From a virus (taxonomy: Duplodnaviria; Heunggongvirae; Uroviricota; Caudoviricetes), in IMG/VR virus record IMGVR_UViG_2545824717_000010: 23,357 nt of DNA. One strand, 5' to 3'. Each line of letters begins with the position of its first letter. Position 1 is the first letter of the stretch. Made by a program: the position numbers and the translations under genes. Below the pieces are notes generated by a model, which saw nothing but the letters and a program-made list of their open reading frames with translations, searched no databases and had not been told where the DNA came from. Of this stretch, positions 1,385-11,316 are shown piece by piece.

Positions 1385-2035
1385 TTACAAATTAAAAAAC
1401 GCCCTAGAAATGAAACCGCCTACCAAACCCCCTACGCAGATAAAGAATATTATTTCTTTTGGATAAAGTCGGATTAATTCTGAAGCACGAAGTCGGACTT
1501 CTGGTAAGGTCGAACTCTCTGTGTGGCTTGATGCCGATTGTTGCTCTAACCACGACAATGCAGACTGTAACTGAGAACGAGTAAGATCGTTTAAACGTCC
1601 TGTACCGAAATTGATATGGCAATACCGCAGAAGTTTTTGTCGAAGTCCACAGTCTTCACTGTTACGTAGTAATAAACTTACAAGAGCCTTACAGGCATCA
1701 TGATCTTTACATCGCTCAAGCATTGCATGCAGAAAACTCTCCGCTGTTTTATATTGATTTACTGTCATATCATCAATACCAGCTACACCAATCTCCGCAT
1801 GTACTTTTTGCCAAATAATAAACGCTTCAGTATTGCTAGCTTCTGCAATAGCAGCAACCAAGCTATTTAGCTCCTTACGCTGAACCTTAAGCAAAGGGCG
1901 ATCGTCATCATCATTATTCGAAGGGATTGCGATATTGACGGTCTGAGAACCATCATATCGCTCTATCTGAATATTCTTTTCGTGAAAATCACGCCCAGCA
2001 ACGCGATTGTTTGAACCGTTTGAGTTGACGGCCAT
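1385..2035 (-). CDS. Tail-anchored membrane protein, unknown function (cargo)
   Basis: 216 aa; soluble N-terminal domain with acidic DDDD stretch; single C-terminal hydrophobic segment (IIFFICVGGLVGGFISRAFF); AT-rich; 15 bp downstream of the HTH regulator gene. Confidence 0.6.
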   Translation of the reverse strand: MAVNSNGSNNRVAGRDFHEKNIQIERYDGSQTVNIAIPSNNDDDDRPLLKVQRKELNSLVAAIAEASNTEAFIIWQKVHAEIGVAGIDDMTVNQYKTAESFLHAMLERCKDHDACKALVSLLLRNSEDCGLRQKLLRYCHINFGTGRLNDLTRSQLQSALSWLEQQSASSHTESSTLPEVRLRASELIRLYPKEIIFFICVGGLVGGFISRAFFNL

Positions 2036-2050
2036 GTCACCTCCCTACTA

Positions 2051-2455
2051 TCACCTACCCTTAGTTTCGTTATAGTCACGACCAGCGATACGGTTATTAC
2101 CACCAGAAATATTTAACTCACGTCCTGATGGCTGAGTTTCCTTTTCACTGATCGCACCTTTTAAAGCCCCAATCACCGCGTTTTTCACATCTAACGAAGC
2201 TGCTCGAAAGCGAGTAATCAACTCCTGCTCATCATCGTTATAAGTTTCAGGTGAGTGAATTCCCAACACAACATACTGAACATCAAGGCCAAAACGAGAC
2301 AGCGCTGCCAAATACGCAGCATCAGGAAAGCTATCTCCTTTCTCATATCTAAGCTGAGTTAGCTTTTTGACTCCACCAATGTCGCTCATGGCAACTTGAC
2401 TAAGTCCCAATCTTTCCCTTTCCTCACGCAACCGCTGACCAATATCATTTTTCAT
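2051..2455 (-). CDS. HTH (XRE-type) transcriptional regulator, putative prophage repressor
   Basis: 134 aa; N-terminal helix-turn-helix pattern (QRLREERERLGLSQVAMSDIGGVKKLTQLRYEKG); divergent from the early operon; first gene of an operon ending in int, as P2 C-int. Confidence 0.7.
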   Translation of the reverse strand: MKNDIGQRLREERERLGLSQVAMSDIGGVKKLTQLRYEKGDSFPDAAYLAALSRFGLDVQYVVLGIHSPETYNDDEQELITRFRAASLDVKNAVIGALKGAISEKETQPSGRELNISGGNNRIAGRDYNETKGR

Positions 2456-2464
2456 ACAAAAACC

Positions 2465-2493
2465 TTGACAGGTATCTTTTTTGATACCAAAAT
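2465..2493 (+). promoter_or_regulatory. Candidate early promoter (-35 TTGACA, 17-bp spacer, -10 CAAAAT) with operator palindrome GGTATC-T6-GATACC in the spacer
   Basis: TTGACA at 2465..2470; perfect 6-bp inverted repeat at 2471..2488; lies in the divergent intergenic region between the repressor-like gene and the early operon. Confidence 0.4.
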
Positions 2494-2530
2494 GATTTCA
2501 CGAGCTATTAGATGATCACAATATACCACT

Positions 2531-2737
2531 ATGAAACAAGTTCTTCACGATACCAGATCACGCATTCCGCGTAACACCGCCACAGGTCCAAGACTGGCAC
2601 TTCGGCTGTCCCTCGAGGAGCGAGCCGTCATCGATGAAATGGCAGCTAAAGAACAACGCTCATCCTCTAACATGGCGCGCATGATCTTCCTTCGCGGCCT
2701 AGAGCTAACCCAGAAAGAACAAAACAAATCTTCCTGA
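2531..2737 (+). CDS. Small early regulator, possible ribbon-helix-helix fold (Cro/Cox-like role)
   Basis: 68 aa; predicted beta-strand (LALRLSL) followed by two helices (EERAVIDEMAAKEQ, NMARMIFLRGLE); first ORF of the rightward early operon; no obvious Shine-Dalgarno. Confidence 0.45.
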   Translation: MKQVLHDTRSRIPRNTATGPRLALRLSLEERAVIDEMAAKEQRSSSNMARMIFLRGLELTQKEQNKSS

Positions 2738-2753
2738 TCAGGAGGCTAGTGGG

Positions 2754-2957
2754 ATGTCAGGTATAACCATCAATATCAATGTGAATGCCCCCTATGTATC
2801 CCTGCAGAAATATGCAGAGATAACAGGTATCCCTCTTAATACATGCAAAAAGATGTTGGCTGACGGTCGAATTATTATCCGCCCCAAACGCGCCAAAATG
2901 GAAAAGCCTGAAGTAAACCTTGTGGCGATGTTAAAAGACGCTTTGGCTAACAGCTAA
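2754..2957 (+). CDS. Small HTH DNA-binding protein, Cox/excisionase-like
   Basis: 67 aa; strong RBS AGGAGG upstream; segment YVSLQKYAEITGIPLNTCKKMLADGRI resembles the HTH region of P2 Cox-type proteins as recalled. Confidence 0.5.
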   Translation: MSGITININVNAPYVSLQKYAEITGIPLNTCKKMLADGRIIIRPKRAKMEKPEVNLVAMLKDALANS

Positions 2958-2978
2958 AACAATGAACAGAGCACCATC

Positions 2979-3329
2979 ATGAAAAAAAACGCTAATAATC
3001 CATACTCCAAATTTCGTAATGGCGTAGAACGCCATGTACACCACGTCGCTACCAGTGCATCACGTAGTAACAGTCGCTATAACCTGAACGAGACGCACGC
3101 AACACCGGATGGCCACGCTGTAAAACAAATCGGCGAGCATGCCTGGCTGATTGAGAAAGCTGGAATCGTGGTCCACAAATGCCCACGCAATCCGTTTACC
3201 GGAAACCGCATTTTTGCATTGAACTGCGGCGACAATCACTTCGGGCAGGATTTCACATTATACGAAGCACTTCGCACGGTTGATCGTCTGCTTCGCGGGC
3301 AAAGTTTTATTAAACAGGCTGATTTATAA
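2979..3329 (+). CDS. Hypothetical early protein
   Basis: 116 aa ORF in early operon; His/Cys-rich (HVHHV, HKCP, NCGDNH), possible metal-binding. Confidence 0.5.
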   Translation: MKKNANNPYSKFRNGVERHVHHVATSASRSNSRYNLNETHATPDGHAVKQIGEHAWLIEKAGIVVHKCPRNPFTGNRIFALNCGDNHFGQDFTLYEALRTVDRLLRGQSFIKQADL

Positions 3330-8755: not shown

Positions 8756-9601
8756 ATGACAAAGCCTTCTCATTTTAGAACCCCTCTTCGTTATCCGGGA
8801 GGTAAGGCAAAATTCTTGCCACATATTGAACAAATACTCCGCAACAATGATCTCATTGGTGGATGTTATGCTGAACCTTATGCAGGTGGAGCCGGTGTAG
8901 CATTAGGTTTGCTCCTTAACGGTCTTGTTGAAAATATCTTCATAAATGATATTGATCCTGCCCTTTATTCTTTTTGGTTTGCAGTGGTTAATCATAACGA
9001 TCTGTTATGTGAAATGATTGATGAAGTTCCTGTGACTATTGAAAATTGGCATACTCAAAAGGAGATACTCCTAAACAATGATAAATATAGTATGCTTGAA
9101 GTCGCATTATCTACTTTCTTTTTAAATAGAACAAACCGTTCAGGAATACTTAAGGCTGGCGTTATTGGAGGGAAAGAACAAAAAGGACCATGGAAGTTAG
9201 ATGCAAGATTCAACAAAAAAGAGTTAATTAAAAGGATTGAACTAATTGGTGCATATAAGGAGAAAATTTACGTATCGAATTTTGATGCTGTAGATTTTCT
9301 GCTACACCAAAAAGCATTGCTACCCAAAAATAGTCTAATATATCTTGATCCACCTTATTATGTTAAAGGAGCAGAGTTATATAGAAATTTTTATAAACAT
9401 GATGATCATGTAAAAATCGCTAATACACTACGGGAAATTCAACTACCTTGGGTTGTGTCTTATGACAATGTGCCTGAAATAAAAAGCATATATCATGAAT
9501 TCAATATGACTGATTATACGCTTAATTATACTGCACAAGATAAGAAAAAAGGTCTAGAAATTATCATTTATAATCATGGTATAAAAATCCCTGACATTTA
9601 A
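8756..9601 (+). CDS. N6-adenine DNA methyltransferase, D12/Dam family (alpha class)
   Basis: 281 aa; N-terminal RYPGGK motif; SAM-binding motif I EPYAGGAGV (about 8870..8896); catalytic motif IV DPPY (9347..9358); markedly AT-rich versus flanks. Target sequence cannot be inferred. Confidence 0.85.
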   Translation: MTKPSHFRTPLRYPGGKAKFLPHIEQILRNNDLIGGCYAEPYAGGAGVALGLLLNGLVENIFINDIDPALYSFWFAVVNHNDLLCEMIDEVPVTIENWHTQKEILLNNDKYSMLEVALSTFFLNRTNRSGILKAGVIGGKEQKGPWKLDARFNKKELIKRIELIGAYKEKIYVSNFDAVDFLLHQKALLPKNSLIYLDPPYYVKGAELYRNFYKHDDHVKIANTLREIQLPWVVSYDNVPEIKSIYHEFNMTDYTLNYTAQDKKKGLEIIIYNHGIKIPDI

Positions 9602-9618
9602 ATTTAAGGATGATATAG

Positions 9619-11316
9619 ATGATTAAAGAAATTAGTTTTAAAAAATTTAAGAAACTGATAGATATTGACTTCTCATTCAATGAAGACATCAATATAATAT
9701 CAGGAACCAATGGGACATGTAAGACAACATTGCTTCATTTAATTAGCAATGGTTTCCAAATGCCACCATCTCGATCACAAAATTATTCAAATAGTAATTG
9801 TGTTAGAGTTATAAAATCTATAAACAAAATAGCCAACCCCAAAATGGAAGCAATTGTTAGGGAATCAAAAAATTACACCGATCCGGCAGAGGGAACAAAA
9901 GGTGTGTTATTTTCTATTAACTATTTGGATCATAGCACACTAGACTTCAGAAAGCACAACTCAAAAAATCCAGACGAAGCGCAACGGTATGCTATCAAAC
10001 CAGTATACCCACGCGGAAAAGAAAAACAATCACTTCCAGCTAAACCAGTTTTATATCTTGGATTATCGCGACTATTCCCAATTGGTGAAACTAAAGACGA
10101 CGCCCTTACAAAAATTCCGTTAAACCTACCAGAAGAGTATGTTGGTTATATATCGAAAATATATAATGAACTTTTGGGAATTAATATTATAAATATAGAA
10201 TCAAACAATATCGGTGATTTTAAAGCTGGCCCATTATTTGATACCGATAACCCAGCAATTGATTCTAATACCATATCATCCGGGGAAGACAATATATTCA
10301 TTATAATCAAGGCATTAGTTAGCCTTAGGTATTATTTTGAATCACTTATTCAATCCACTGATCAAAAAGAAAGCATTCTGTTAATAGATGAATTTGATGC
10401 CACTTTACATCCTTCTTTACAGATAAGATTATTAGATAAAATTTATCAATACGCAAAAGATTATAAGATTCAAGTATTTTTCACAACGCACAGTCTGACA
10501 TTGCTAGAGTATGCTTTTCATAAAAAATACCATGTTGTCTATCTAATTAACAATATTACAAAGGCTCTGCTTTTGGATAATCCTGATATATTAAAAATAA
10601 CAATGTATCTGAAAACACAAACAAAGGATGAGATATACACAAGGAACAAGATACCAGTTTTCACGGAAGATGAAGAAGCTCGCTTTTTATTTAATGAAAT
10701 ACTTGGTTATTGGATAAGCAAATATCCAAATTTTGCTATAGTTAGTAATTCATTTCACTTAATTGATTGTTTCATTGGTGCAGACAATTTAAAAACTATT
10801 TTTAATGATTCTCATCTTAAGGAAACCTCGTTAAAATCAATTTGTATTCTTGATGGAGATCACAGCCCTGAGGATCAGAGAGGAATTATATCACTGCCGG
10901 GTGAAAAAGCTCCAGAACAATTGATATTTGAGCATTGTGAGCACCTTTATAATACCGACGACTCTTCCTTCTGGGAAAATCAGGATATAATTAACAATGG
11001 TTTTTCGAAAGAGTTATACTTACTCAAGATACGTCCTCAATTACAATCAATTGAAACTGAAATTCAGAAAAGAAAAGACAACCATGAGTCTACATCCGGT
11101 TTAAGAAGAAGATTAAATAAGAAAATATTCAATCAGCATATTGAATTCTTTAGAATGATTACAAGAAACTGGTTAGACAAACCAGAAAATCAGAAATCTC
11201 TCCAGTATTTTTACAATGGATTACGATCCTTATTCTACCGGGTTACACCAACAAACGGCATTGACAGAAAAATTTGGGATTTTGACTATAACAAAATCAT
11301 TAAAGAGGATAAATAA
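9619..11316 (+). CDS. ABC-type ATPase fused to a TOPRIM-like nuclease domain (OLD/PARIS-like architecture)
   Basis: 565 aa; Walker A GTNGTCKTT (about 9703..9729); Walker B LLIDEFD (about 10381..10400); TTHS motif; C-terminal region with conserved Glu (VFTEDEEA, about 10654..10680) and DxD (ILDGDH, about 10846..10860) consistent with TOPRIM; starts 17 bp after the MTase stop; very AT-rich. Confidence 0.75.
   Translation: MIKEISFKKFKKLIDIDFSFNEDINIISGTNGTCKTTLLHLISNGFQMPPSRSQNYSNSNCVRVIKSINKIANPKMEAIVRESKNYTDPAEGTKGVLFSINYLDHSTLDFRKHNSKNPDEAQRYAIKPVYPRGKEKQSLPAKPVLYLGLSRLFPIGETKDDALTKIPLNLPEEYVGYISKIYNELLGINIINIESNNIGDFKAGPLFDTDNPAIDSNTISSGEDNIFIIIKALVSLRYYFESLIQSTDQKESILLIDEFDATLHPSLQIRLLDKIYQYAKDYKIQVFFTTHSLTLLEYAFHKKYHVVYLINNITKALLLDNPDILKITMYLKTQTKDEIYTRNKIPVFTEDEEARFLFNEILGYWISKYPNFAIVSNSFHLIDCFIGADNLKTIFNDSHLKETSLKSICILDGDHSPEDQRGIISLPGEKAPEQLIFEHCEHLYNTDDSSFWENQDIINNGFSKELYLLKIRPQLQSIETEIQKRKDNHESTSGLRRRLNKKIFNQHIEFFRMITRNWLDKPENQKSLQYFYNGLRSLFYRVTPTNGIDRKIWDFDYNKIIKEDK

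Follow-up and report, generated by a model that had tools for sequence, protein, structure and literature searches.

A perfect palindrome in the early-promoter spacer is the predicted repressor operator of a P2-like Escherichia coli prophage

Which protein acts on the perfect 18-bp palindrome that lies between two divergently oriented genes of a P2-like prophage, and could that protein hold the early promoter shut? The DNA analysed here, called the window throughout, is the whole 23,357-nucleotide stretch of IMG/VR record IMGVR_UViG_2545824717_000010. It forms the left part of a P2-like prophage and is 98% identical to Escherichia phage 520873 (Peduoviridae, Xuanwuvirus); the region is present in 523 of 5426 complete E. 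coli genomes, O157:H7 strains included. On the leftward side of the gap the genes run integrase (1-1002), DUF2511, Flk-like membrane protein and XRE repressor, and on the rightward side Arc-like ribbon-helix-helix protein, Cox-like protein, small early genes and the gpA replication endonuclease. This order is that of the immunity, or switch, region of a P2-like prophage, in keeping with the first-pass annotation, which had read the gap as a lysogeny/lytic switch region. The genes on which the argument turns are the following.

2051-2455, minus strand: 134-aa XRE-type immunity repressor (Pfam, phrog_8, profile, AF2, Foldseek, 232 homologues)
1385-2035, minus strand: 216-aa Flk-like protein with a C-terminal membrane anchor (phrog_5825; NCBIfam Flk, E 3.7e-15, below cutoff)
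2531-2737, plus strand: first early gene, 68-aa Arc-like ribbon-helix-helix protein (phrog_3431, E 9.8e-29)
2754-2957, plus strand: 67-aa Cox-like excisionase/repressor (phrog_575, E 1.2e-27)

The 68-aa ORF is annotated as Arc-like in NC_049344, and its homologues occupy the same position in enteric relatives; we presume that its product is a counter-repressor of the Cro/Cox type. In the RefSeq/PGAP annotation of near-identical E. coli prophages this ORF is left uncalled, and a short antisense 'hypothetical protein' (2590-2727, minus strand) is called instead. The match of the Arc-like ORF to its PHROG is full-length, and relatives conserve the ORF; the opposing call is likely a mis-annotation in hundreds of genomes. 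BLASTP found no similarity between the 67-aa Cox-like protein and P2 Cox or 186 Apl. The Flk-like gene comes next after the repressor in the leftward operon, and Pfam Flk_N matches its homologue in two related loci (L083 and L084). Much further to the right, between gpA and the portal gene, lies a known variable hotspot of P2; here it holds, at 8756-11316, a methyltransferase matching PD-Lambda-5_B (E 8e-122) and a 565-aa AAA ATPase of the PtuA/GajA/AriA type. The pair is probably anti-phage defence cargo, and near-identical prophages carry ParM and partition genes in its place.

The gap itself (2456-2530, 75 bp) separates the repressor ORF from the Arc-like ORF and contains these elements.

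2463-2466, minus strand: probable Shine-Dalgarno AAGG of the repressor (CCTT on the plus strand), 7 nt before the ATG, read from the sequence
2465-2470, plus strand: -35 hexamer TTGACA of the rightward early (Pe-like) promoter, from sequence reading and a promoter scan
2471-2488, no strand: O1, the predicted primary operator, a perfect palindrome GGTATC-TTTTTT-GATACC
2488-2493, plus strand: weak -10 hexamer CAAAAT, with a 17-bp spacer to the -35

Reading of the sequence thus bore out the consensus -35, the 18-bp palindrome and the weak -10 that had been described at the outset. The palindrome consists of GGTATC (2471-2476), a run of six T (2477-2482) and GATACC (2483-2488), and it occupies the promoter spacer, from about -29 to -12 relative to a predicted start near 2500. 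TTGACA/CAAAAT is the sole sigma-70-like site that the promoter scan returned in 1900-3100, matching at 10 of 12 positions.

The window holds 16 perfect 6-6-6 palindromes, where Markov resamples give 6.7 +/- 2.5. Such a palindrome is by itself not rare here, and the case therefore rests on its position and on comparison with relatives. The hexamer GGTATC/GATACC is likewise over-represented, with 15 copies against 6.6 +/- 2.3 expected; apart from O1, the excess sites of both kinds are not operator-like. The two excesses are what could be said for regarding the palindrome as a chance feature of an AT-rich gap, with the regulator acting elsewhere or not being the immunity repressor. That reading is scarcely credible in our judgement, as the chance expectation of a perfect 6-6-6 palindrome within this 75-bp gap is 0.017 and the architecture is conserved across bacterial classes. 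A search for the exact 18-mer pattern gave a single copy in the window, and again a single copy in the complete ~33-kb prophage carried by a near-identical E. coli strain.

The comparison with relatives started from 232 repressor homologues, whose alignment was used to scan a genome collection and gave 80 loci. TTGACA, an 18-bp palindrome and (C)AnAAT stand in the same register in 45 of 83 loci with homologous repressors (L002-L081, L083, L084 and the window), where the selection rule used would yield about 1.4 by chance. The loci with this architecture come from Gamma- and Betaproteobacteria, including Enterobacterales, Gilliamella, Pasteurellaceae, Aeromonas, Pseudomonas, Halomonas, Bordetella, Burkholderia and others, and their palindrome is mostly GGTA-N10-TACC, directly 3' of TTGACA. 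Among 33 distinct relatives, T1 and T2 of the -35 never vary, and conservation of G3, A4 and C5 is 90% or more. The -10 columns A25, A28 and T29 are at least 90% conserved in the same 33 and invariant in ten enteric loci, the hexamer in relatives being CATAAT, CACAAT or CAGAAT. The embedding of the palindrome in the promoter spacer, as originally proposed, is accordingly seen in a register kept from Enterobacterales to Pseudomonas, Bordetella and Pasteurellaceae. Judged by sequence comparison, the conservation of one architecture in such distant relatives puts the palindrome beyond chance.

The arms of O1 also change together. In 33 aligned operators, 96.1% of arm cells are symmetric, against 69.3% in shuffled and 30-43% in slid controls, and two-sided changes are present in 7 of 7 arm pairs; the 96.1% is inflated, since these genome operators were picked by a rule demanding at least 6 of 9 palindromic pairs. 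A second sample was drawn by scanning IMG/VR for TTGACAGGTA-N10-TACCANNAT with the inner positions left free, which gave at least 120 contigs and escapes the selection effect on symmetry for positions 5-9 only. In 71 distinct operator/protein combinations from this sample, symmetry was 92% at position 5, 83% at position 6 and 63% at position 7, where chance would give 25%. Several relatives carry perfect 9+9 palindromes without a loop (e.g. L006 and L050). Many of the IMG/VR contigs (L091, L105, L116, L119, L120, L134 and others) have their promoter and operator at exactly 2465-2493, as in the window; this sharing of coordinates means that the window probably starts at the same prophage boundary, with the int end adjoining yecA.

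Two-sided compensatory changes would likewise be expected of a stem, and the repeat would be transcribed if the leftward transcript began near 2513 (see below). The palindrome could then be an RNA hairpin in the 5' leader of the repressor mRNA, acting on stability or translation, with compensatory changes that preserve the stem. We consider this very unlikely. The leader folds no better than its shuffles (z = -1.22; 21 of 200 shuffles were as good) and has no Rfam match, and the loopless palindromes of L006 and L050 do not suit a hairpin. Moreover, the outer GGTA/TACC is conserved as sequence, beyond what pairing asks; the register to the -35 and -10 is fixed; and base 5 of the half-site tracks a residue of a protein.

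That protein is the product of the divergent gene at 2051-2455. Its Pfam matches to HTH_31, HTH_19 and HTH_3 (E 8e-5 to 1e-3) all fall below the curated gathering cutoffs, and a profile of its family matches the P22 C2 N-terminal domain with E 6e-7. In the AF2 model, residues 5-64 form a five-helix HTH with pLDDT around 90 and a recognition helix at 31-39; two more helices follow at 74-105, which we presume to dimerise, and then a disordered tail (105-134). The closest DNA-bound fold found by Foldseek is P22 C2 on its operator (3jxb), with TM 0.80-0.82 and rmsd 1.6 A. A five-helix HTH of the XRE/Cro-C1 (HTH_3) superfamily is thus detectable by both profile and fold, as the earlier assignment of the regulator to the HTH-XRE type had it. 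Pfam gave no Peptidase_S24 match in the protein. Residue 32 comes second in the predicted recognition helix. In the alignment it corresponds to Val33 of P22 C2, the residue that reads thymine methyl groups in the C2-operator complex. Escherichia phage 520873 is the only close source of a homologue among cultured phages, all other cultured-phage homologues being below 60% identity.

The tail of the repressor carries a further feature. The peptide NRxAGRD(Y/F) occurs there as NRIAGRDY (2069-2092, minus strand; residues ~121-128, 5-6 residues before the stop, in the disordered segment), and again at residues 10-17 of the Flk-like ORF (1985-2008, minus strand). Both copies are conserved in all enteric relatives examined, and the peptide might serve for docking, as a degron common to both proteins or as a handle for membrane sequestration. 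In a Burkholderia P2-like phage, the lytic cycle is reported to be triggered when an HTH gene is deleted, and likewise when either of two genes downstream of it in the same orientation is (PMC13026187).

Half-site base 5 goes with repressor residue 32. Among the genome loci the pairs are Leu with T (21), Gln with C (28), Lys with A (12) and Asn with C (4), with 3 exceptions; in IMG/VR they are Leu with T (45), Lys with A (30), Gln with C (29), His with G (6) and Asn with C (4), with 4 exceptions. The His-G pairing is not seen among the genome loci, which also hold operator classes other than GGTA, namely Thr with C (4) and Arg with C (4). The correlation is partly inherited by descent; in a tree built without the recognition helix, residue 32 has switched between Leu and Gln independently at least four times. 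One of these switches is seen in P0004, an E. coli variant of the same prophage type, whose repressor has a C-terminal half almost identical to that of the window and whose recognition helix IRKQTQL goes with the operator GGTACG-T6-CGTACC. As sequence evidence for a protein-site pair, covariation of this sort is of the strongest kind, and it points to the divergently encoded HTH protein as the binder of O1.

The products of the early operon deserve weighing as binders too, because proteins of the RHH and Cox types do work at switch regions, and a gene for each lies a short way downstream; the Arc-like or the Cox-like protein might bind the palindrome and autoregulate the early promoter, leaving the XRE repressor out. 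The first rightward gene, however, varies: enteric loci have an Arc-like gene there and most other relatives a Ner-like one, and the palindrome and its register are kept where a Ner-like HTH gene stands there and no Arc-like gene does. The inner operator bases also vary among loci whose Arc-like and Cox-like proteins are very similar, and this variation follows the XRE recognition helix. We therefore give little credence to a lytic-side binder. The pairing of regulator and palindrome proposed by the first-pass annotation is, by contrast, supported on both counts, namely the covariation of base 5 with residue 32 and the survival of the palindrome when Ner replaces Arc.

A second candidate operator lies on the repressor side of O1.

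2441-2458, no strand: O2, a candidate auxiliary, degenerate operator AATATCATTTTTCATACA, matching at 9 of 14 arm positions

O2 lies 30 bp from O1 centre to centre, about 3 helical turns, and overlaps the start codon of the repressor (2453-2455) and codons 1-5. In the search behind it each locus was scored with its own O1 for a degenerate copy 30-35 bp towards the repressor gene. Matches at 10 or more of 14 arm positions numbered 13 at offsets -30 to -35 and 2 elsewhere within +/-70, and the best O2 scores summed to 311 against 215.8 +/- 6.0 for random windows in a permutation test. The score was 8.89 with the operator of the same locus and 6.92 with foreign operators. Residues 2-4 of the repressor are variable and appear free to encode O2. 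We infer cooperative binding of O1 and O2 on the same helix face, with possible roadblock autoregulation.

Additional half-sites nearby, which had been suggested as a matter for searching, turned out at 2549, 2760 and 2826 to be coding coincidences. GATACC at 2549-2554 is part of the Arc-like gene; L083, with a repressor of different specificity, retains it, while L082, with one of the same specificity, has lost it. As for the two near-sites, 2826-2843 (2 mismatches) and 2760-2777 (3 mismatches), they coincide with codons for the Cox-like peptides TGIPLNT and GITINI, which are conserved, and both sites vanish through synonymous changes in L082, whose repressor shares the specificity of the window's. 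When the complete ~33-kb prophage of strain 51489 was scanned allowing up to 3 mismatches, 7 sites came up where 8.2 would be expected; the ogr-like gene has none nearby, and no site other than O1 is strong. A search for an SOS link gave one LexA-type CTGT-N8-ACAG, inside gpA, which is no more than chance, and no tum-like antirepressor was identified in the window.

As for the promoter of the repressor gene, a simple consensus scan detected none in the window and found none in non-enteric relatives. The probable Shine-Dalgarno of the repressor directly abuts the -35 TTGACA of the opposing promoter, with CCTTGACA conserved in many relatives; given this abutment, the leftward transcript should start to the right of about 2470. 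There, a candidate can be read from the sequence.

2520-2528, minus strand: candidate extended -10 TGGTATATT of a leftward repressor (Pc/pL-like) promoter

It would place the leftward start near 2513, facing the rightward start. It falls in a block, GA(T/A)CACAATATACCACTATGA (2510-2533, running through the Arc-like start codon), that is invariant or nearly so in ten enteric loci with differing O1, and L015 retains TGTTATAGT at the leftward -10 despite three substitutions. A Shine-Dalgarno for the Arc-like gene is missing from the block, which may serve as the repressor promoter, as a site for the Arc-like protein, or as both. An extended -10 on the minus strand suggests face-to-face promoters as in P2 and 186, a topology that agrees with the annotated switches of those two phages.

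The anatomy, conservation, arm symmetry and residue-base covariation are computational observations; from them we infer that the protein binds, in what stoichiometry (dimer or tetramer), where transcription starts and what O2 and the leftward promoter do. We postulate, with a probability of about 0.85, that O1 at 2471-2488 serves the divergently encoded 134-aa repressor as its primary operator, and that the repressor shuts the early promoter from it. A repressor dimer would put one recognition helix (31-39) into each GGTATC half-site, and since O1 spans the whole 17-bp spacer, bound repressor would exclude RNA polymerase. Occlusion of the rightward early promoter, as first suggested, thus finds support in an operator that fills the spacer in a conserved register. 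This promoter would drive the Arc-like, Cox-like and gpA replication genes, so that occupancy of O1 would keep the prophage lysogenic and confer immunity. O2 would probably take a second dimer cooperatively and sharpen repression, and at high repressor level it may obstruct leftward transcription of the repressor gene. The repressor gene, in turn, is probably read from the weak extended -10 promoter at 2528-2520 that faces the early promoter; with the early promoter shut, interference with repressor synthesis would be relieved too, as in P2 and 186.

A protein bound within a spacer need not repress. MerR-family operators are palindromes between -35 and -10, and the shared position raises the thought that the regulator activates the promoter by distorting its spacer. 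The spacer here is an optimal 17 bp, not 19-20, and the -35 is already consensus; the protein is of the XRE type without similarity to MerR and sits in the genomic position of an immunity repressor. MerR-style activation is for these reasons most improbable, and repression from O1 remains our reading.

The mechanism that we propose is an ordinary, textbook one, and it confirms rather than overturns what is known of phage repressors. This repressor family of P2-like prophages seems to be uncharacterised so far. In the literature searched we found nothing on this repressor or operator, on regulation of the CP-933T or Sp13 switch, or on a palindromic operator in Peduoviridae, nor any experiment on binding, footprints or transcription starts with this repressor or a close homologue. 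A survey of the regulatory regions of P2-like phages in 2011 found only the P2 and 186 types clear, the repressors of some members being unidentifiable (PMC3448106). The prophage type is carried by about 10% of complete E. coli genomes, and its switch was previously undescribed; what is new here is a concrete predicted operator, a candidate second one and a candidate facing promoter. The relation between residue 32 and base 5 predicts which prophages should be heteroimmune, and the finding as a whole is useful for annotation and immunity prediction. The compact cassette of a consensus -35, a programmable 18-bp palindrome and a -10 could also be reused for orthogonal repressor-promoter pairs.

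It is tempting to go further, to a proposal that we ourselves regard as unlikely: that these repressors make up a third, widespread kind of immunity module in P2-like and certain other prophages of Proteobacteria, in which Leu, Gln, Lys or His at residue 32 reads T, C, A or G at half-site position 5 and so makes heteroimmune variants, and in which induction works not by RecA cleavage but through the tail peptide NRxAGRD(Y/F) that is duplicated at the N-terminus of the co-transcribed Flk-like protein. If true, this would be a new way of controlling a phage repressor, for example by membrane sequestration or a shared degron.

How does the predicted switch compare with those already known? Within the Peduoviridae, a counterpart by position is P2 C (and the C proteins of W-phi and P2 Hy dis), which likewise heads the leftward operon, with int on one side and the early operon on the other. 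P2 C is also small and without a cleavage domain, and works with two operators at Pe and convergent Pe/Pc-like promoters (PMC3448106), an arrangement that the prophage here may share. The resemblance of the proteins is slighter: identity is 33% over the first 46 aa only (pairwise E 5e-5), Foldseek gives P2 C (2xcj) a TM of 0.65 with a weak E of 2.6e-2, and P2 C is absent from the PDB profile search at E <= 0.01. The sites differ as well, just as the first-pass annotation had held, P2 O1 and O2 being annotated as direct 8-mers in NC_001895 and its operators being described as direct repeats in a further paper (PMC2995052). The two 8-bp direct repeats of P2 C (99 aa) flank the -10, whereas the inverted repeat described here lies inside the spacer, the second site is upstream of the -35, and neither O1 nor O2 extends beyond the -10. 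The first early gene is Arc-like here and cox in P2.

The pR-pL switch of phage 186 also belongs to the Peduoviridae. Its lytic and lysogenic promoters stand face to face, as is suggested for the prophage here, so that shutting the first is of indirect benefit to the second, and its pL -35 region lies inside the first early gene, as that of the candidate leftward promoter would. Its CI protein (192 aa), in contrast, has no similarity to our repressor in the HTH region and binds three sites at pR together with the distal FL and FR; here there is no conserved distal site, and no equivalents of cII or tum were found in the window.

Other prophage repressors offer partial parallels. DicA of the Qin prophage and RstR of CTX-phi are repressors of about 110-135 aa without a peptidase domain, encoded divergently from a Cro-like gene; their N-terminal profile matches are weak (26-27 bits against cutoffs of 80-101), which places our protein outside those families, and there is no relation between the C-terminal halves. 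Over the full length, Foldseek ranked SinR best, likewise an XRE HTH followed by a helical oligomerisation segment, but the match has E 2e-3 and an rmsd of 8.4 A over the full length, and SinR is a host developmental regulator and not a phage repressor.

There is a likeness, too, to P22 C2, 434 cI and lambda cI. The repressor shares their five-helix XRE domain, with its best sequence and structure matches to the N-terminal domain of P22 C2, and its specificity residue stands in the place of C2 Val33. Shared also are a two-fold symmetric 18-bp operator that overlaps the early promoter, AT-rich central bases that are probably not contacted, and a weaker operator adjoining. Unlike the lambdoid CI and C2 proteins, it has 134 aa and no S24 peptidase or RecA-cleavable domain; two operators lie 30 bp apart in place of three about 24 bp apart; the promoters are probably face to face and not back to back; and the genome that houses it is P2-like. 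In its way of working, the pair described here is a lambdoid repressor-operator pair of the P22 C2/434 kind, set outside that family by its want of an S24 domain.
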